Below are positions 39,319 through 64,000 of a stretch of 64,000 nt of DNA, piece by piece. This DNA comes from a virus. Its lineage: Duplodnaviria > Caudoviricetes. The notes under the pieces are model-generated. The model was not told the DNA's origin, searched no databases, and was given only the letters and a program-made list of their open reading frames with translations. The first letter of the stretch is position 1, and every line of letters starts with the position of its first letter. The position numbers and the translations under genes are program-made. The stretch covers positions 1 through 64,000 of IMG/VR virus record IMGVR_UViG_2884152688_000003; one strand, given 5' to 3'.

Positions 39319-39723
39319 ATGGAATTAGATACAAATAATCATTCAGTATTTCTTCTATATTATCACCTTGTGTTGGTAACTAAATATCGTAGACAGGTGA
39401 TTGATGATGAAATATCTGATTACGCAAAAGCTACTTTTGAAAGAATTTCAGAATCTTATAACATTACTTTAGTTGAGTGGAATCACGATAAAGACCATAT
39501 TCATATTATGTTCAAAGCTCAACCTAAAACAGAAATGACAAAATTCATAAACGCCTACAAGAGTGCTAGTTCACGTTTGATAAAACGGAACTTTCCAAGA
39601 GTTAAACAGTTTCTTTGGAAAGAGATGTTCTGGTCTAAAAGTTTTTGTCTTTTGACAACTGGTGGAGTTCCAATTGATGTGATTAAGAAATACATTCAAA
39701 GTCAAGGAAGTAATCATAAATAG
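39319..39723 (+). CDS. tnpA: Y1 HUH transposase
   Basis: YHLVLVTKYRR, DHIH, KKYIQSQ. Confidence 0.95.
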   Translation: MELDTNNHSVFLLYYHLVLVTKYRRQVIDDEISDYAKATFERISESYNITLVEWNHDKDHIHIMFKAQPKTEMTKFINAYKSASSRLIKRNFPRVKQFLWKEMFWSKSFCLLTTGGVPIDVIKKYIQSQGSNHK

Positions 39724-39730
39724 AAAGTAG

Positions 39731-40882
39731 GTGAACCTCATGAAACAATTAAAAGCATATAAATTCAGAATATCTCCAACAGAAGAACAAGAAATATTCT
39801 TCGCTAAGTCTTTTGGTTGTGTTCGTAAGGTCTACAATCTAATGCTTGATGACCGAATGAAATCTTATGAAGAGACTAAGGATGATACATCTAAAAAAAT
39901 GAAATTTCCAACACCTGCAAAATATAAGAAAGAATTTCCTTTCTTGAAAGAAGTAGATAGCCTTGCTTTAGCAAATGCTCAACTAAATCTAGATAAGGCT
40001 TATAGGAACTTCTTTCGAGATAAATCAATTGGATTTCCTCGTTTCAAAAGCAAAAAAAATCCTGTTCAAAGCTACACAACAAATAATCAAAATGGAACAA
40101 TAACATTGGTTGACGGTAAGTTTATTAAGTTGCCTAAATTAAAGTCATTAGTTAGAATTAAACTGCATAGGCAAATTAAAGGAATTATCAAATCAGCAAC
40201 AATATCACGTCTTGCAAGTGGCAAATACTTTGTGTCTATTCTATGCGAAGAAGATATACAAGAATTGCCAAAGACTAACTCTACTATTGGCATCGACTTA
40301 GGAATATCTCACTTTGCTATACTATCTGACGGTCAAAAGATAGATAACCATAAATTTACTTCTAAGATGGAACAAAAACTTAAACGTGAACAACGCAAAC
40401 TATCCAAACGTTGCCTTATGGCTAAAAAGAAAGGCATTAAACTTTCTGATGCTAAAAACTACCAGAAACAAAAAAATAAAGTAGCTAAGCTACACGAAAA
40501 AGTAATGAACCAACGTGAAGATTTTCTGAACAAGTTAAGTACATCTATTGTCAAAAACCACGATACTATTTGTATAGAAGACTTAAATATCAAAGGAATG
40601 TTACGTAACCATAAATTAGCAAAATCTATATCTGATGTATCATGGTCTAGATTTGTAACTAAATTAGAATACAAAGCCAACTGGTACGGAAGAAAAGTTA
40701 TAAAAGTAGATAAATGGTATCCGTCTAGTCAAATTTGTTCTAACTGTGGACACAATGATGGCAAGAAAGAGTTAACCATAAGAGAATGGACTTGCTCTAA
40801 TTGCAACACGAATCATGATAGAGATATAAATGCAAGTATAAATATAAAAACCGAAGGAATTAGGTTACTAGAAATATCGTAG
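39731..40882 (+). CDS. tnpB: RNA-guided endonuclease TnpB
   Basis: GIDLG, IEDL, Zn finger, DRDINAS; RuvC triad intact. Confidence 0.95.
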
Positions 40883-41112: not shown

Positions 41113-41188
41113 GGATTAGTAGCTCAGTTGGTAGAGCATTCGGCTGTTAACCGAAGGGTCACAGGTTCGAGTCCTGTCTTTTCCGCCA
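41113..41188 (+). tRNA. tRNA-Asn(GTT)
   Basis: D arm gctc/gagc, anticodon ttcgg-ctGTTaa-ccgaa, T arm acagg-ttcgagt-cctgt, encoded CCA; two U-U mismatches in acceptor stem. Confidence 0.9.
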
Positions 41189-55075: not shown

Positions 55076-55105
55076 ACCCCACCAATTGGTGGGGTTATTT
55101 TTTTT
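55076..55105 (+). terminator. intrinsic terminator
   Basis: accccacc-aatt-ggtggggt followed by T run. Confidence 0.85.
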
Positions 55106-55185: not shown

Positions 55186-55962
55186 TTGGTCTTTCATTCG
55201 GACAGATTTATATTCGATGGAGTCAATTCGGAGAGCATAGGGATAATGTTAGTGACTGTCGGTGAAAATGACGTGCTAATGGACTATGGGATTCCATTTG
55301 AATACAAGTTAAAAGTAGAAAGTAGTTTTGGAGATAATCCTTTTTATACCAAAGAGGAGTCTCCACCAGAACCAATCACTTTAGATTTTTGCTTAACAGA
55401 GAATAGACAAGCAATAAAGTGGAGTGATGAGTTGGAAAAAGAAATAATTAACTGGTTAACACAAGATAAATTTTGTGAATTCATTTCTTATGATAATCCA
55501 GAATTAGTTTACTATTTTAGAGCAACAAAGGTTACAAAGAAAATGACACATCAAAAAAAAGGTATTTTATCAGTAACCTTTCAACCATATTACAAACATC
55601 CAGTGAAAAAGATAAGAAAAGATTTGTTGGTCGAGGGAGAAAGATTTACAAATATAAACAATGAGTGTATTTCAAGAGAATATGTATATCCAATGCTAGA
55701 AATTGAGGCAAACGCAAGTGGAAACGTAGAAATTTTAAATGAATCAATAGAAGATTCTGAACCTCTTGTAGTAAAAGGGCTAGAGGACGGAGAAAAAATA
55801 TTTATCGACAATCAACTGTTTATAGTAATAGATGAAAATGATGAAAATAAGTTCCATAAAGTAAACAGACATTGGTTGAAACTAAAAAAGGGAACAAACA
55901 AAATAAAAATCAACGGAAATGTAAATATAAAAATTAAATGTAATTTAGAGATAAAGATATAA
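55186..55962 (+). CDS. distal tail (Dit)-like protein
   Basis: F.FDG..S...GI, II.WL, VYP.LEI, WLKLKKG.N.I. Confidence 0.7.
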   Translation: MVFHSDRFIFDGVNSESIGIMLVTVGENDVLMDYGIPFEYKLKVESSFGDNPFYTKEESPPEPITLDFCLTENRQAIKWSDELEKEIINWLTQDKFCEFISYDNPELVYYFRATKVTKKMTHQKKGILSVTFQPYYKHPVKKIRKDLLVEGERFTNINNECISREYVYPMLEIEANASGNVEILNESIEDSEPLVVKGLEDGEKIFIDNQLFIVIDENDENKFHKVNRHWLKLKKGTNKIKINGNVNIKIKCNLEIKI

Positions 55963-55972
55963 GGAGAAAATT

Positions 55973-56425
55973 ATGAGAACAATAAAATTAAGTGAACTGC
56001 CTAAGAAGGAAAAATATAGAGATATAATTTCGGTTACTATGGATGACGGTGAAATAGATTATATATACGTTTTGAATCCAACAGGCGAAATAGAAAAAGA
56101 ACTTTTAGAGGTATGCTCTGAGGTTATATTTGAAAAATGTGAACTTGACGATTCTGAATTGATGAAATTATTCATAGAAAAACTTACAAATATAGAAGTT
56201 GAATACGGATTTCAGGAAGTTCCAGAGTCCGATGCTTTAGCAAGAGTATATACTACACTAAAAACTATTTACTTTGAAATGATAGATTTTTGCTACAGAT
56301 TTTATATTTGCGAAGAATCAGCAATGAAGGCAGAAGAAAGTAGAGAAAAATTATTAAAAGAAATCAGTGCGAAAGAAGAAAAAGAAGATAAAGAAATTAT
56401 AAACGCCATAAAAGAAGATAAATAG
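55973..56425 (+). CDS. hypothetical protein (possible tail chaperone)
   Basis: Acidic ORF upstream of tape measure. Confidence 0.5.
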   Translation: MRTIKLSELPKKEKYRDIISVTMDDGEIDYIYVLNPTGEIEKELLEVCSEVIFEKCELDDSELMKLFIEKLTNIEVEYGFQEVPESDALARVYTTLKTIYFEMIDFCYRFYICEESAMKAEESREKLLKEISAKEEKEDKEIINAIKEDK

Positions 56426-56440
56426 TTATGAGGTGAAAAT

Positions 56441-56754
56441 ATGGTCTTTGGATCGATTGAAGAGTGTGAAGCTTATATAAAGAGTTGTATGACACAAACA
56501 ACCCCAGTTATGGCACAAAAAACTCAAGAAGAAGGAAAGAACATAATATCCGGACAGGTTGGTGGAATAACAGGAAGTTTGGCAAATTCAGTGTTTATAT
56601 TGGGAACATCAGCAAATTCAATGGAGGTAGGAATAGAGGATAGAGGTGGTGGAAATGATTATTCATGGACATCACAGGTTTATAGAACTCATTTCTTTCC
56701 GATGTACGGATTAGAGAAAGGCCACACATGGAATAGAGGTGCCACAACAATTAT
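56441..56754 (+). CDS. HK97 gp10-like tail protein, exon 1
   Basis: TGSLANS, GLEKG; joins in frame to 58910..58994 after IStron removal (132 aa). Confidence 0.7.
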
Positions 56755-57299
56755 AGGTTTTTCAAGCGAGAAAACCCACGATTTTAATCGTGTGGATGAA
56801 AGCTTGTCAAATACACTGTAAGCATATAGAGAAATCTGTATGTAGTGAATACATAAAACTCATGTATTCCAATTAAGAAACTGAATTGCTGGAAATTCGT
56901 AAAGCTAACTTAACTACAACGCAAAGATAATACAAAACTTAAACGTGAATGTGGCGAGAGCAGAAAAAATAAGTTAGATGGCATAAGGTTAAACCCTAAG
57001 TGCTTTAAAATTGAAAATCAGCATCCAAGCCTAGAAATAGGAAGGTTCAACGACTATTCCTCTTGAGGGAAGTACATCACAAGCCATTGGTGATGGAAGT
57101 GGTTTCGCCTTAGCACGTAATGGTGAAGGATAAGATATAGTCTGTGCTTGCACGAAAGTGTAAGAAGTTCATAAGAGAACTGTATAGATAGTAGCGAATC
57201 TATATGAACAAACTTCACACAAAAAAAAGAAAGTATAATAGTTTTAATATTGTGTATAAAACTATTGATTTCGTACACTAAATAGCATATAATAAAATT

Positions 57300-57701
57300 A
57301 TGAATAATGAATACAGAGACTCAAAAACAACTGTTTCGTTAATCAATTATCATTTTGTTTTTTGTCCAAGATATCGAAGGAAAATATTTGAAGATTCCAA
57401 AGTAGATATTAGATTTAAATCAGTCATTCAAGAAATATGTATTGAGAATGATTGGGATATTATTGCAATAGAGACAGATAAAGAGCATTGCCATTTATTC
57501 ATAAATGTACAACCTATATATTCTCCTTCTGAAATAATGAAGATAATAAAAGGTATTACATCACGAAAATTAAGGCAAGAATTTGAACATTTAAGCAAAA
57601 TGCCAAGTGTTTGGACAAGGTCATTTTTTGTTTCAACTGCTGGTGATGTATCTAGTAAAATAATTAAAAGATATGTTGAAAATCAAAGAACAAGATACTG
57701 A
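57300..57701 (+). CDS. tnpA: Y1 HUH transposase
   Basis: YHFVFCPRYRR, EHCH, KRYVENQ. Confidence 0.95.
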   Translation: MNNEYRDSKTTVSLINYHFVFCPRYRRKIFEDSKVDIRFKSVIQEICIENDWDIIAIETDKEHCHLFINVQPIYSPSEIMKIIKGITSRKLRQEFEHLSKMPSVWTRSFFVSTAGDVSSKIIKRYVENQRTRY

Positions 57702-57716
57702 TTATACGTTAAGGAG

Positions 57717-58844
57717 GTGACAGAAATGAAAAAGGCACATAAGATACGTATTTACCCAAATACTAAACAACAGATACAATTTCAAAAAACATTTGGATGC
57801 GTAAGATTTTACTGGAATTTTATTTTAAACCAAACTCAAACAAATTATAAAATGAAACAAGAAGATGAAATGTATTTAGAAGACAAGACAACATATGCAA
57901 TTCTTAAAAAACAAGAAGAATATTCATGGTTAAAAGAAGTTGAAGCTCAACCATTAAGCCAAGTGACTATGGATTTAAGAAAAGCATACAAAAATACATT
58001 TAAATCTAAGTTTGGGCTCCCTAAATTCAAGAGTAAAAAATACTCTAAAAAATCTTATAGGACAGCAGCTGGAATGAAGGTGAATGAAAACTACTGTTAT
58101 ATATCTAGAGTTGGGTGGGTAAAAATGGCGGAGAAGTTACGATTTAAAGGAAAATTAATGAATGTAACAATCAGTCAATCTAAATCTGGAAAATACTTTG
58201 CAGCATTCTTAGTAGAAACTGAAAATGTTGAACTAGAACCAGTCGAAAATAAAATTGGCTTAGATTTAGGTCTTTCTCATTTCTGTGTAGCTTCCACAGG
58301 AGAAAAAATAGATAACAAAAAATTCTATCATTCTCTTGAAAAGCGACTAATAATTGAACAAAGAAAACTTTCAAAACGTTTAGAGATAGCCAAAAAACAT
58401 AATCGTAAATTAGATGATTGTAAAAACTATCAAAAACAAAAAAAGAAAGTTGCTTTAATACATGAAAAGATATTCAATCAAAGAAATAATTTTTTACATC
58501 AAATTTCTTCAAGAATAACTGATGAAAACCAAGTCATTTGTATAGAAGATTTAAACGTAAAAAACATGATTAAAGATCATAAATTAGCGAAATCAATAGC
58601 CGATGTATCGTGGAGTGAATTCGTAAGACAATTAGAGTACAAGTCTAAATGGAAAGGAAGAAAACTTGTTAAGGTAGATAGATTCTTCCCTAGTTCTCAA
58701 ATTTGTTCTAAATGTGGACACAATGATGGCAAGAAAGAGTTAACCATAAGAGAATGGACTTGTTCTAATTGCAACACGAATCACGATAGAGATATCAATG
58801 CGAGCATAAATATTAAAACCGAAGGACTTTCGGGGTTAGCTTAG
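57717..58844 (+). CDS. tnpB: RNA-guided endonuclease TnpB
   Basis: GLDLG, IEDL, Zn finger, DRDINAS. Confidence 0.95.
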
Positions 58845-58909
58845 TAAATTTACTATCAATAGATGGTATTACCTAAGAACCCCACGATTTTAATCGTGTG
58901 GAGTGTCAG

Positions 58910-58994
58910 GATTACATGGGAATCATGGGCTTCTGGAAACTTAGATAAGATATTCTTAGAAACAATGAGTGGTCTAGGAGTACCTATAGGATAA
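58910..58994 (+). CDS. HK97 gp10-like tail protein, exon 2
   Basis: (M)ITWESWASGNLDKIFLETMSGLGVPIG*, stop abuts the tape-measure RBS. Confidence 0.7.
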
Positions 58995-59009
58995 GGAAGG
59001 AGTGATTTT

Positions 59010-61169
59010 TTGGCTGAGTTTAGAATAAAAAGTACATTAGATCTCAGTACAGATGAAGCAAAGAGCAAAATGAAAGCTCTTGAAAATGAAAAGATTAAAG
59101 CTAAATTAGAACTAGATGCCGAAAGTAGTAAGAAAGCCCTTAACAGTTTAGATAAAGCGTCAAAGCAATCTCAACAGAATAGGGTCAAAGATGCAAAGAA
59201 GGCAGAAAATGAATTAGCTGGGATAGATAGAAAAAAGCTAAATGAATATAAAAGATTAGGGCAGGAAAAAGCTTCTTTAAGTAATAAGTTTGCTAAAGCT
59301 GAAAGCGATAATGCTAGAAAGAATTTAGATAAAAATATTAGAGATAGACAACGACAGATGTCTGGACTATACAAACAAATGTCTAGTGAACAGCAAAAAA
59401 TAGCAAAACAGATGGACACTCAAATGTTCGGTGCTAAATCAGGCAATGGCTTACTGAAGGCATTTGGACGAATAGATAAAGATGCTTTAAAGATAAAAAA
59501 TACTATCAGAAGTCTAGATGGGGATATAACTAAAACCTTAGGGAATAAGCTATCTAAACAAATGGATGGATTTTATAAAGGATTAGATAAAAAACCTGTC
59601 AATAACGCTACGTATGAAAACGCTAGAAGGACGATGAATAGTTATCAACAAAGTGCTAAAGCTTTGAAAGAAATTTCCTCTCTAGAAAAATCATATGGAA
59701 GTAGACAAACGGCTGTAAACAATAGACTGGGTGGTTTAAGTAATCTAGTAACGCAAAAAGCTGGGGCTGAACTAAATAAAAATTTAAGCCAATCTTTTTC
59801 ACAAATTAGAGGAAAAGATATAACTTCAACAGCTAGTAAAATGAAAGTTTTTGGAACTGAATTAAACAGGACAGCTACAGCAAGTAAACAATTACAAGGA
59901 TTAGATAAGACAATAAATAGATTGTCTGGATTAGAAAGTGGTTTAAAACCTAAAACTATTAATGGTCTTAGACAAGGGATAGTCGATTTATCTAAATCAC
60001 CTTCATTAGGAACAGCAAGTTTTGATTCCGAATTAAAAAAAGTAAATACGCAAATGACAGTAGCGAGCCGATATCAAGGCCGAATGGCAAAACTTAAAGA
60101 TGATTTTAAGATGTCCATGTTCGGAACCTCAATGGGATATTTGGCTGGCTCTTTTTTACGTTCTCAAGTAACTGGAGCAATCCAAACTTTTAAAGATTTA
60201 GATGCTTCAATGACAGATATAAAGAAGGTAGCAAATCCTAGAGATGTAGCGACAGAATCTCAAACAAAAGCTATTAGAAAACAAGCTATCCAAATAGCGA
60301 AAGATGTTGGGATGGCTTCATCTGATGTCCAATCATCAATAGCTACAGCATTACAATCTGGTATGGGCGGTATGAAAGAGTCTATGGCAGTTGCAAGAAA
60401 ATCTATGATATTAGCTAACGTTGGTGATATGGATAAAGTTGAGGCAACAAAAGCTGTCAATACCATAGTTAAATCTTTCAACTTAGACCCTTTAGGGAAA
60501 CAAAGAGTTAACGTAAAGGGAATGTCAAAAGAAACAACACAATTAGCTAATGCAATGGACTTGCTTAACTATGCAGGTAATAATTATGCTATATCTTCAG
60601 CAGGTGTAGCCGAGGCATTACAGCGTGGTGGTGGAGTTATGAAAGCATATGGAATGAACTTAGCCGATTCTGTTGCAATGATTACAGCCACAAATGAACC
60701 AATACAGAATCCAGAAAAAGTTGGTAATGGTTTAAAATCTATTGCTATTAATATGGCTGGTATTACAACCAGTGCCAAAGATGGGACACTCCATGCGAAT
60801 AAAACAGCTAAGGCACTTCAAGAAATTGCTGGCGTTGATATATATAAAGATAAGGCAAAAGGATCTCTTAAATCCCAAGTTGAACTTTTAGATGAAGTTC
60901 AGAAAAAATGGGGTGGATTAAACGATGCTCAAAGAGCCGGTCTATCTGAGTCTATAGCAGGTAAACATAGAGCGGATATATTCCAAGCTTTAATGGGGAA
61001 TTACGAAACATTTAAGAAACTTCGTAATGAGTTTAGCCAAGGAGACCACTTTGGTTCAGCTGAAGCCGAAAACGAAAAATATGTAAACTCATTAGCTGGT
61101 AAGACAAACAAGCTAAAAGAGACCATGACTTCCATAGGAACTGGTCTTATAAATGGGAAGGCTGTTTAT
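59010..61169 (+). CDS. tape measure protein, exon 1
   Basis: TP901-like TMP domain (LDASMTDIKKV, GNNYAIS, VGNGLKSI). Confidence 0.9.
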
Positions 61170-63064
61170 TAGGAACGTAGTGATATAAACGAGAATCCTC
61201 GTGATTTTAATCATGAGATGAATCGTAAAATAGATACGTAAATAGTAAGCATATAGAGAAATCTGTATGTAGAGGTGAGAGAAATTCATCCAATACTACT
61301 TGAATTGCTGGAAACCCCTAAAGCTAGTAAAACTACAACATAGAGATGAAATATACTCAAGTGTGAATGTTGCGAAAGCAGAAAAAAATTACTAGATAAC
61401 ATAAGGTTAAATCCTAAGTGTTCTACAATAATGGGCAATCAGCAGGTAAGCTCCGAATAGGAGAAACTTCAACGACTATTCCTCTTGAGGGAAGTACACA
61501 CAAGCGTGTGGAAGTGGGTAGACCTTAACACGTAATGGTGAAGGATAAGATATAGTCTGTGCTTGCACGAAAGTGTAAGAAGTTCATAAGAGAACTGTAT
61601 AGATAGTAGCGAATCTATATGAACGAGACCTCAAAAATGATAAAGTACAAGGTTCAAGGCATTAGTCCAGAAAACTTTTACAAAAATATGGGCTTATTCA
61701 GTAAAATGCGGTACAATTGCCTTATAGAAAAGAGGTGAGAAAATGTATTTAACTGTAAAGCAACAAGTAAAACAATTATCTAAGGAAGACTATAAAAATA
61801 TAAGAGAACTATCTCATGTAGCTAAAAACTTAGCAAATGAAGCTATATATAATATTCGTCAGTATTATTTTCAAGAAGGAGAATATTTGAACTACGAAAA
61901 AAATTATGTATTACTAAAAGATAGTGAAAACTATAAAAAACTAAATTCTAATATGGCACAACAAATATTAAAAGAAGTAGATGGTTCTTTTAAGTCCTTT
62001 TTCAGTCTTATTAAATTAGCTAAGAAAGGAAAGTATTCATTTAGAAATATTAAATTGCCAAAATATCTTCCAAAAGATGGATTTACGACACTTATTATAG
62101 GATTTGTTAGATTAAAGGGAAATCTTTTAACTATACCATATTCTAATCAATTTAAAAAAGAACATTCAACTGTTACTATAAAAATCCCACAAATTCTTTT
62201 AGATAAAAAGATAAAGGAGATAAGAATTATACCTAAAGCTAAAGCTAGGTTCTTTGAGATTCAATATACTTATGAAGTTGAGAAAGAACAAAGAAATTTA
62301 GACAAAAACAAAGCACTAGCAATAGATTTAGGAATTAATAATTTAGCTACTTGTGTGGTATCAACAGGTGAATCCTTCATAGTTGATGGGAGAAGGTTAA
62401 AATCTATAAATCAAGGATATAATAAGCAAAATGCAATATTACAAAGCATTAAAGATAATCAAAAATATGGGAAAAGACCTACAAATAGACAATATAGAAT
62501 TGCTGAAAAAAGAAATAATAAAGTCAATGATTATATGTCTAAAACAGCAAGGATAATAATTAATTATTGCCTTAAAAATAATATTGGAAAAATAGTTTGT
62601 GGGTATAATGAAACATTTCAAAGAAACAGTAAACTTGGCAGAATAAACAATCAAAACTTTACAAATATACCATTTGGTAAACTAAGAGAAAAGTTGGAGT
62701 ATCTATGTGAATTATATGGTATAGAGTTTAAAAAACAAGAAGAAAGTTATACTTCTAAAGCAAGTTTCTTTGATAATGATGAAATCCCAACATATAACAA
62801 TGATAATCCAAAAGAATATGTATTCTCTGGCAAAAGAGTAAAAAGAGGATTGTATAAAACAAAAAAAGGATTAATCTTAAATGCAGATGTAAATGGAGCG
62901 TTAAACATATTAAAGAAAAGTAACGTTGTACCCTTAGAAGGGTTATACACTAGAGGCGAACTGGACACGCCAATACGTATCAAAGTAGTTTAAGCTATGG
63001 AGAACGTAAATAGGTTTAATTAATAAACCTTAGAACCCTGTGATTTTAATCATAGGAGGTTCAG
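61170..63064 (+). mobile_element. IStron 2 (group I intron plus tnpB only, non-autonomous)
   Basis: TTAT| ... TCAG| ends, gtgattttaatcat hairpins, intron core shared with IStron 1. Confidence 0.9.
61743..62993 (+). CDS. tnpB: TnpB of the rearranged-RuvC clade
   Basis: AIDLG; IVCGYN (Gly at canonical Glu); QEESYTS; NADVNGA. Confidence 0.9.
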   Translation: MYLTVKQQVKQLSKEDYKNIRELSHVAKNLANEAIYNIRQYYFQEGEYLNYEKNYVLLKDSENYKKLNSNMAQQILKEVDGSFKSFFSLIKLAKKGKYSFRNIKLPKYLPKDGFTTLIIGFVRLKGNLLTIPYSNQFKKEHSTVTIKIPQILLDKKIKEIRIIPKAKARFFEIQYTYEVEKEQRNLDKNKALAIDLGINNLATCVVSTGESFIVDGRRLKSINQGYNKQNAILQSIKDNQKYGKRPTNRQYRIAEKRNNKVNDYMSKTARIIINYCLKNNIGKIVCGYNETFQRNSKLGRINNQNFTNIPFGKLREKLEYLCELYGIEFKKQEESYTSKASFFDNDEIPTYNNDNPKEYVFSGKRVKRGLYKTKKGLILNADVNGALNILKKSNVVPLEGLYTRGELDTPIRIKVV

Positions 63065-64000
63065 GGTGGGTTAGATGCTCTTAATGCTTTTGCTGGAGGT
63101 TTAGATAAATTAGTAGGTTTTGCAGAAAAATATAATCTTCAACTACCTGTTATGGCATCAGGGCTAGGGATGTTAAAAAGTTCATTTAATGGGTTTAAGA
63201 CACCTATAAAAACGTGGGAAGAATTACTTGGGAACGATACTCCTAAGAAACATTCTAAAGCTACAAACAAACCGAAAATAACAGCAGATTCTTTCTCTAA
63301 ACCTAGAGATATAAAAGAACAAACAAATGCAGTAAATACATTGACTAAAGCTAATGATAAAAATACTCAATCTATAAGATCTAATGTCAAGGCAAGTGAA
63401 AGAACACCAGAACAAGCAAAAGCTGTTAGAAAAGAATTAGCATCTCAATTTAAGACTGTTGATTCATTAGGTAAAGCAAAAGAGAAAGATTTAGATATAA
63501 CTAAAAAAGGGATTTCAGCTAATATTAAGGCAGCCGAAAGTGCTAAACAACACAGAAAAGGGATATCTGGACAAGTCCAAGAACTTAAGTCTTTAAATAA
63601 AGTTAGTTCACAATCGTCCAAAATAGGTATAGGAGATAAAATCAGTGGAGTAACAAAAGGAATAGGTGGGGTAGCTAAAAATCTATTATCTGGTGTTGGA
63701 GGAATGTTAGCAACAGGTGCTTTATATGGTGGAGCTACTTTAGCTATATCTAAAGGATTAGAATATGGGTATAAAGGATACCAAAAGTTAACTAATGGTG
63801 TGAACATGTCTAGGCAAGCCCACATAGATAGAAGAAATGCCTTAGTAGGTGAGAACAAAGCTATTTCTTCAAATATAAACTTTTTACAAAACAATAAAAA
63901 AGAATATGATTCTTTAAGAAATAAACAAAAGCAGTTATCAAACACGCCATATGAGAATATGTCAGAATCGCAAAAGGCTGATATGGACAAATTAAAGGCA
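63065..64000 (+). CDS. tape measure protein, exon 2 (runs off window)
   Basis: Frame GGLDALNAFAGGLDKLV... open to the edge; continues ...GKAVY. Confidence 0.85.

Follow-up and report, generated by a model that had tools for sequence, protein, structure and literature searches.

Near the right-hand end of the window (the 64,000-nt stretch of DNA analysed here, positions 1 to 64,000 of virus record IMGVR_UViG_2884152688_000003) lie two IStrons, elements in which a group I ribozyme is joined to an insertion sequence (IS). Both point the same way, 2.3 kb apart, within the tail module of a region derived from a phage. IStron A (56755..58909, 2155 bp) contains the IS200/IS605 genes tnpA and tnpB, whereas IStron B (61170..63064, 1895 bp) contains a lone tnpB and no tnpA. 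The explanation that we favour, with good confidence, is that A and B are group A IStrons of different sublineages, that their TnpB proteins come from different clades, and that patches of ribozyme sequence have recently been copied between the two elements by gene conversion.

Anatomy of the two IStrons

The region analysed was 56441-64000, on the + strand throughout. Along it lie part of a small tail-module gene, the 2155-bp insertion, the remainder of the small gene, 720 codons of a tape-measure gene, the 1895-bp insertion, and the remainder of the tape-measure gene. Exon 1 of the small gene (56441..56754, from the list of open reading frames, ORFs) has 104 codons and two bases of a split ATG codon, and exon 2 (58910..58994) supplies the third base, 27 more codons and a TAA. 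Exon 1 of the tape-measure gene (59010..61169, 720 codons) matches Pfam PhageMin_Tail (E 3e-23) and PHROG tape-measure families; exon 2 (63065..64000) is in frame with it and continues past the window end. Removal of A and B restores both host frames, giving a small gene of 132 codons and a continuous tape-measure gene. Left unspliced, the small gene would run on for 22 residues of intron sequence before ending, and the tape-measure frame would meet a TAG immediately after codon 720.

In G059, a genome of the same genus, the homologues of both host genes are uninterrupted. The last 194 aligned residues of tape-measure exon 1 and residues 2-30 of exon 2 share one frame in the homologue, where they are 7 codons apart, 7 residues being expected. 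The homologue of the small gene aligns to exon 1 residues 1-98 and also has both exons in one frame, 14 codons apart compared to the 9 expected; the Met encoded by the split codon (AT before the element, G after it) corresponds to a Met in the homologue.

Group A IStrons are described as inserted after TTGAT, ATTAT or TTTAT and as ending in TCAG; their ribozyme is of subgroup IA2, their IS200/IS605 ORFs come after P9.2 and follow a motif such as GAACGA or GAACAA, and each end has a subterminal palindrome, the 5′ one being part of P1 (Tourasse et al., 2014, PMC4227781). All five features are present in A and in B. The exon before A ends at 56754 in ATTAT, and the exon before B ends at 61169 in TTTAT. 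Both introns terminate in G, as the last base of TCAG, and the junction between ribozyme and IS is GAACAA in A (57206-57211) and GAACGA in B (61621-61626), with the ORFs following it. We class A and B as group A (IS200/IS605-type) IStrons with IA2 group I ribozymes.

The ribozyme core of A (56818..57209) runs from P2 to P9.2 and ends in GAAC, and that of B occupies 61245..61624. In searches of 501-base stretches, Rfam RF00028 was matched over the full model (1-253) by both, at 56818-57164 in A with 63.3 bits and at 61245-61579 in B with 69.5 bits, compared to a gathering score of 50. The structure was modelled as P2, P2.1, P3, P4, a P5 domain, P6, P7, P7.1, P7.2, P8, P9, P9.1 and P9.2, including the P3/P7 pseudoknot. 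The helix names follow, in part, section 14 of PMC4227781. Covariation in the 96 modelled pairs was counted over 56 diverse relatives. Standard pairs occupy 97.1% of 5297 cells, a percentage that is inflated because the structure came in part from RNAalifold applied to the same family alignment, and both sides change in 72 of the 96 pairs; P7 is invariant in this count because it was included in the search pattern. None of 500 shuffles pairs as well, and partners slid by 1-3 columns pair in just 33-41% of cells. The IA2 extras given in PMC4227781, namely P7.1, P7.2 and the extended P9.0/9.1/9.2 domain, are found in both elements and covary.

Sequence and predicted folds agree on P1. In A, the exon end UUAU followed across the splice site by AG pairs with the guide sequence CUGUAA (56815..56820, the 3′ strand of P1), and in B, UUAU followed by UA pairs with UAGUAA (61243..61248), with a U.G pair at the splice site. 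Two base pairs are changed on both strands, AG/CU in A versus UA/UA in B. The pattern used to look for P1 in 119 related introns was narrow and fitted 33 of them, the other 86 mostly carrying another guide sequence; a matching 5′ site is present in 30 of the 33 (17 UA/UA, 9 AG/CU, 3 UG and 1 AG/UU). RNA folding gives P1 in both elements as a long stem, the tip of which is formed by the left-end subterminal hairpin of the transposon (56775..56795 in A, from DNA and RNA folds; 61198..61217 in B). The left-end hairpin of A recurs at its right end with a 96% match over 25 nt. The predicted right-end hairpins are at 58881..58901 in A and 63037..63056 in B, and a TTTA loop is common to all four. A preliminary description of this DNA, made from the letters and their translations, had reported TTAT/TCAG ends for both introns, covariation in P1 and related hairpins, and our analysis agrees with it in each of these respects.

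The folds also predict a competition at the right end of each element. In A, the 3′ arm of the right-end hairpin (58896-58904) can alternatively pair with 57212-57220 and so close the cargo into a loop, the duplex having −13.7 kcal/mol compared to −9.1 kcal/mol for the hairpin. In B, the 3′ arm and the bases next to it can pair with 61627-61641 in the same way (−10.8 kcal/mol compared to −9.5 kcal/mol). The partner segment sits just after GAAC, and the pairing would bring the 3′ splice site to the core. Inspection by eye gave no convincing P10 pairing with the 3′ exon in either element.

A scan of the + strand found a single strong terminator-like site, at 55076, ahead of the tail genes. Within 55186-64000 only a weak site was seen, which is the left-end hairpin of B. 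Given that no strong site falls within this interval, one transcript spanning both insertions is plausible, and it is likewise plausible, following from the anatomy, that a single tail transcript would be spliced twice. There is a promoter-like site (TTGATT, 17 nt, TATAAT) at 57265-57293, just upstream of tnpA inside A, which could give the cargo of A a separate transcript; in the same scan, promoter-like sites were no commoner than in shuffled sequence.

Identical tracts, cargo and the ribozyme family

Two tracts are identical in A and B. One, of 28 nt (56818..56845 = 61245..61272), covers the end of P1 and the entire P2 hairpin. The other, of 96 nt (57114..57209 = 61529..61624), begins in apical P8 and continues through J8/7, the P7 3′ strand, P9, P9.1 and P9.2 to GAAC, where the homology between A and B ends too. 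This is also the motif type after which the IS part begins in all IStrons (PMC4227781). In the stretch between the tracts, the identity of A to B is just 71.4% (180 of 252 kept columns). P2.1, P3, P5, P5a, P6 and P7.2 differ there, mostly by compensatory changes, and P3, a long-range helix, retains lineage-specific partners on both strands.

The longer block was compared with 117 other sampled family members. Within its 96 columns, 47 are less than 90% conserved and 18 less than 50%, and it is the covarying P8, P9 and P9.2 stems that make up the variable columns. The closest of the 117 has 10 differences from the block, and the median is 21. Identical runs of at least 96 occur in 14 of 1906 family pairs with 70-80% overall identity, for which the median run is 30 and the 99th percentile 85. 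The long runs in these other pairs show that mosaicism recurs in the ribozyme family, and in A and B the identical tracts are best read as patches of recombination, that is, as gene conversion. A side observation concerns metagenome contigs BNJS, BNJT, BNJU and BNJV (L229-L308), which contain many closely related ribozymes without an ORF within 1.5 kb downstream, several of them on one contig. Pairs of these share up to 229 nt in one unbroken identical run although the rest is 76-78% identical. They may represent IStron derivatives without an ORF, or else introns that stand free and undergo frequent recombination.

The direction of copying was addressed with sites that separate the A lineage from the CdISt1-like (C) lineage. 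In A, the middle region has 43 A-type and 13 C-type sites, while the tracts have 4 and 11 (Fisher p 0.0005); in B, the corresponding figures are 20 and 40 in the middle and 4 and 11 in the tracts (p 0.76). Since the sites switch type in the tracts of A and are unchanged in those of B, the conversion was probably from B, or a B-like element, to A. The short P7.2 of B is the A-lineage consensus, and A has a long P7.2, so exchange between the two may have run in both directions.

The cargo of A consists of tnpA (57300..57701), encoding a Y1 (HUH) transposase of 133 aa (Pfam Y1_Tnp, E 1e-37; NCBIfam transpos_IS200, 141 bits compared to a cut-off of 55), and tnpB (57717..58844), for which the likelier start is the ATG at 57726, behind GGAGGTG. 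The TnpB of A has HTH, OrfB_IS605 and TNB domains and matches the ISDra2 TnpB structures in PDB (E 1e-70). Its D183, E277 and D359 (in HDRDIN), together with the four zinc-finger cysteines C330, C333, C349 and C352, are invariant in an alignment of typical TnpBs. It passes the wide NF040570 model (335.9 compared to 100 bits), and we assign it as a typical TnpB rather than as a member of the NF038281 equivalog.

The tnpB of B (61743..62993) encodes a protein of 416 aa, for which the broad NF040570 model is the only one passed. Its RuvC-III motif is NADVN, and an invariant Gly287 aligns opposite E277, the RuvC-II Glu of the typical set, in a profile alignment. Among 127 family members, C276 and C322 are the sole conserved cysteines, and there are no conserved zinc-finger cysteines. 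D195, E333, E334 and D382 are invariant, and E333 and E334 are candidates for the displaced RuvC-II Glu. An AlphaFold model (predicted local distance difference test, pLDDT, 80) matches Cas12f and TnpB structures, the best being AsCas12f (E 4e-17), and has low confidence over the stretch where the zinc finger would be. DRDXN marks typical TnpBs, and NADXN a major clade termed derived (Altae-Tran et al., 2023, PMC10691335). In these terms the motifs place the TnpB of A as typical and that of B as derived, with RuvC-II rearranged.

The ribozyme family was sampled in two ways. A pattern of two conserved motifs gave 38 viral and at least 121 metagenome stretches, and flanks were taken for 80 of the latter. 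From the cargo side, 280 of 321 candidate genome-contig stretches encode a relative of the B-type TnpB, of which 80 were retained, and 42 viral loci for B and 29 for A were added. This produced 131 usable ribozyme cores, 119 of them unique, including A and B. TnpBs that are 30-50% identical to that of A, CdISt1-like and others, follow 52 of the 131, and TnpBs of the same identity range plus tnpA follow 5; the cargo is B-type TnpB in 17 and A-type with tnpA in 11, no ORF was seen in 39, and the cargo of 7 is unknown.

A quick IQ-TREE ribozyme tree was made from the columns between the tracts (273 kept). A joins four other A-type elements, with tnpA and typical TnpB, in a clade of 5 (support 99), and B falls inside a 15-row CdISt1-like group (support 85-89, not counted among the well-supported branches), while 12 of the 15 B-cargo rows are in a separate 33-row clade (support 99). 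Forcing the 15 B-cargo introns into one clade, a test run once the tree had been seen, costs 125 log-likelihood units (lnL), with p 7.8e-6 in the approximately unbiased (AU) test, and the well-supported branches require at least 5 changes of the B-cargo label. Over the middle columns, A has 86.0% identity with L209; for B the figure is 89.0% with L143 and 82-83% with the main B-cargo group. These trees firmly indicate cargo turnover in the ribozyme family. A CdISt1-like ribozyme in B is favoured by the identities and the best tree. In a tree of B-type TnpBs, 22 of 130 rows are marked as intron-bearing, all of them in a 51-row set (support 99) and none in a 79-row clade; these counts are rough, as the pattern used to detect an intron upstream of B-type tnpB undercounts, and L017, L018 and L025 have a core by blastn.

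The preliminary description had proposed one ribozyme chassis bearing two unrelated nuclease cargos, with modular swapping of cargo among IStrons. The shared 28-mer and the identical 96-bp block that it reported are both present, with 124 of 124 positions identical, and the cargo does differ, tnpA with a typical TnpB in A compared to a lone RuvC-II-rearranged TnpB in B. The cargos are related, however: both nucleases belong to the TnpB family, with 24% identity over 245 residues (BLASTP E 2e-5) and an hhalign probability of 88%. A single chassis holds to the extent that the ribozymes are of one family and share the tracts, but not between the tracts, where they belong to different sublineages. 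Swapping of cargo is upheld for the family, where cargo does not follow the ribozyme tree, and is only suggestive for B taken by itself.

Two viral contigs of the sample have a B-cargo and a C-cargo IStron together (L193 with L228, and L212 with L224). A third has a C-cargo IStron (L202) and the B-type tnpB genes L116 and L117, upstream of which no intron was found with the undercounting pattern. L353 (G010:C1:1075349-1079685, genus g4, positions approximately 1290-2875) was considered as an intron-less ancestor of B and rejected. What remains of the ribozyme part after TTTAT is the left-end hairpin with P1, P2 and P2.1 and, of P3 and P4, the 5′ strands; the sequence resumes in the final bases of P9.2 with GAAC, and next comes tnpB (78% DNA identity to B). 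Its sequence identifies it as a B-type element that has lost its ribozyme by a deletion from P4 to P9.2.

Weighing of the explanations and a proposed mechanism

The tracts could alternatively be the remnant of a single recent IStron parent, from which A and B both descend and in which the IS part was exchanged. The complete identity of the tracts and the position of the longer one against the cargo fit such a history, and so does the AU test, in which holding A and B as sisters over the middle columns is not rejected; the A-type minority among the diagnostic sites in the middle of B, including the A-consensus P7.2, also implies exchange beyond the two tracts. We nevertheless consider this history improbable. 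The middle 252 columns are far less alike in A and B than each element is to its own relatives (86-89%), the support-99 clade that contains A excludes B, and the compensatory changes in P3, P5, P6 and P2.1 indicate long separate histories rather than decay from a recent copy. Functional constraint on the 3′ domain of the ribozyme, in place of recombination, has very little probability as the cause of the identity. The block does contain the invariant P7 3′ strand and J8/7, and conservation reaches 90% or more in 49 of its 96 columns, but the other 47 are variable, with 18 varying in over half of the family members, the stems of P8, P9 and P9.2 covary freely, and none of the other 117 sequences approaches the block more closely than the distance given above.

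An artefact of assembly or polishing is the least probable explanation of all. The genome is a draft of 29 contigs, but a single contig holds both copies, their flanks are unique and the reading frames are restored; two direct repeats should permit just one linear path, which argues against a mis-join, and similar mosaic runs occur in pairs from independent assemblies. It is unlikely, though less so than any of the foregoing, that A and B are inert relics in a defective prophage, neither splicing nor moving, in tail genes that are dead. The missing tnpA of B and the presence of A and B as the sole copies in the genome would suit relics. Against this, the three element ORFs and both host genes are intact. 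Furthermore, A departs from the 96 modelled pairs just once, with U.U in P4, and B once, with A.A in P5a, besides having a gap at one P7.2 pair, and recent conversion implies recent co-residence.

Several points weigh against gene conversion between two active IStrons of different sublineages. Splicing, co-transcription and the assembly are read from sequence only. The whole-window and 7-kb Rfam scans missed both ribozymes, which we attribute to speed filters, and the dependence of the structural model on the alignment has been mentioned above. The TnpB of A is below the NF038281 cut-off (421.7 compared to 425 bits). Neither of the narrower AU tests is significant: constraining B to the main 7-row B-cargo group lowers the likelihood by 33.8 lnL (p 0.112), and making A and B sisters lowers it by 35.7 lnL (p 0.0915). 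The conversion direction is based on just 15 informative sites, and a tree of the 96-nt block alone, having 96 columns, is unresolved. Finally, B has no tnpA and the stems of its hairpins are unlike those of A, so that mobilisation of B in trans is a guess.

The sequence shows the anatomy, the family membership, the restored exons, the covariation and the mosaicism; splicing, co-transcription, transposition, nuclease activity and the direction of copying are proposed from it. On the favoured explanation, the two elements would act as follows. At the DNA level, the Y1 transposase of A would move A by means of the subterminal hairpins, inserting it 3′ of (A/T)TTAT, and B too might be mobilised by it in trans. 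A guide RNA extending from the right end into the 3′ exon would direct each TnpB to cut the empty site, and this would drive re-copying of the corresponding element. At the RNA level, each ribozyme would excise itself, with P1 pairing the UUAU exon end to the internal guide and the terminal G completing the intron, and splicing would restore the tail gene, of 132 codons, along with the tape-measure gene. Both identical tracts, of 28 and 96 nt, would have been copied recently between the co-resident elements, most likely from B to A, the longer patch halting at GAAC, where the ribozyme ends and the non-homologous IS cargo starts.

To our knowledge, IStrons are the sole case in which one DNA segment has to meet the demands of a ribozyme, a transposase and a guide RNA simultaneously, and how they exchange parts without loss of any of the three functions is not known to have been argued other than from incongruent trees. 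The locus presents two different IStrons seemingly caught shortly after an exchange, in which the edges of the patches can be read against the RNA structure and the ribozyme/IS junction. A tentative generalisation, which we hold to be possible rather than likely, is that co-resident IStrons trade self-contained ribozyme modules (whole hairpins, for example P2 and the P8-P9.2 domain) by conversion, the long-range P3 remaining lineage-specific, and that TnpB cargo may move by the same route; breaks made by TnpB might trigger this, and both elements might be mobilised by the tnpA of A. As homology ends at the GAAC junction between ribozyme and IS, recombination of this kind could shift TnpB cargo between ribozyme lineages. 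If true, such trading would explain how a CdISt1-like ribozyme comes to carry a zinc-finger-less, RuvC-II-rearranged TnpB. A and B form a natural pair for asking whether typical and rearranged TnpBs use the same kind of transposon-adjacent motif (TAM), (A/T)TTAT, and whether two splicing events are needed for phage tail assembly. What the locus adds is an instructive example rather than a new principle.

Known IStrons and the surrounding region

The kind of element, its target motifs, cargo turnover and the presence of two IStrons in one genome have all been published, and the locus is a clear new example of them. IStron ORFs are non-monophyletic, which has been read as multiple origins; two different IStrons coexist in Clostridium botulinum and in Fusobacterium nucleatum, and recombination between similar ends has been proposed to have created IStrons (PMC4227781). 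Recurrent gain and loss of genes between closely related introns, and many intron-associated tnpB clades, have also been reported (bioRxiv 10.1101/2023.11.20.567912). No description of exchange between two IStron copies was found in the literature searched, subscription journals and supplements being outside its scope, and in PMC13565253 the term gene conversion refers to homing. Elements like B may already appear in the supplementary accession lists of the IStron papers or in fig. S1 of the bioRxiv paper.

A resembles EfISt1 of Enterococcus faecium, a group A element with ORF A, ORF B and an IA2 ribozyme, of 2140 bp compared to 2155 bp (PMC4227781, Table 1). An E. faecium plasmid element (L007) aligns with A from the first base of the element, with 82% identity in TnpA, 79% in TnpB and approximately 77% in the ribozyme; from host, size and gene content we infer that it is EfISt1 itself. 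A is nearer to the uncultured viral elements L162 and L209 (81-86%) than to the enterococcal clade (74%, middle columns) and, unlike EfISt1, holds the two tracts of B-like sequence.

For CdISt1 of Clostridioides difficile, the resemblance is to B, whose core is 85-86% identical to elements that occur in multiple copies in genus g4 and to L009, from a C. difficile plasmid. CdISt1 and B have the same architecture and the same TCAG end, whereas the target of CdISt1 is TTGAT (Braun et al., 2000; Hasselmayer et al., 2004; both as cited in PMC4227781 and bioRxiv 10.1101/2023.11.20.567912) and B follows TTTAT. The TnpB of CdISt1-like elements is a typical one, with 44-47% identity to that of A, in contrast to the derived TnpB of B, which lacks the zinc finger. 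B is also like FnISt2 of F. nucleatum, which has a lone ORF B that is not ISBth17-like and a co-resident second IStron (PMC4227781, Table 1). FnISt2 is listed with a truncated ORF A (PMC4227781), and none is seen in B. An IStron with a B-type TnpB occurs in Fusobacterium as well (L014).

In CboIStron, one transcript provides both the ribozyme and the guide RNA of TnpB (Zedaveinyte et al., bioRxiv 10.1101/2023.11.20.567912), a conflict that A and B would share. Its folds for splicing and for guide RNA are mutually exclusive, and in A and B the right-end hairpin competes with the cargo-closing stem, as judged by predicted energies only. CboIStron is IS607-type, with a serine TnpA, a TGGG target and group B membership, while A and B are IS200/IS605-type and group A. 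The TnpB of B resembles the derived, RuvC-II-rearranged TnpBs of PMC10691335, with NADXN and without the canonical RuvC-II Glu and the C4 zinc finger; it resides in an intron, and the word intron has 0 occurrences in the main text of that paper.

Upstream of the IStrons are phage structural genes, for a virion structural protein and for a tail protein with DUF6558 (Pfam, PHROG). Exon 1 of the small gene matches PHROG 11057 (function unknown; E 2.4e-22). Two small genes (55973-56425, and 56441-56754 with 58910-58994) directly precede the tape-measure gene and match PHROG families of unknown function, with no PHROG match that names a function for either. Siphovirus tail assembly chaperones usually sit directly before the tape-measure gene.

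A and B are the only two copies in the genome. In a family-level genome search, the ribozyme core was matched in 59 of 112 genomes, while within the window's own genus just 2 of 14 genomes gave matches, each of 38 bases with E about 1e-4. Both IStrons probably arrived with the phage region.

A third IS200/IS605 element, which has no intron, is present elsewhere in the window (39319-40882). Its tnpA (39319-39723) encodes a protein just 25% identical to the TnpA of A, and its tnpB (39731-40882) encodes one that is 53% identical to the TnpB of A and passes NF038281 with 504.7 bits. A tRNA gene is nearby (41113-41185), and the approximately 230 bases between it and tnpB leave room for a guide RNA.

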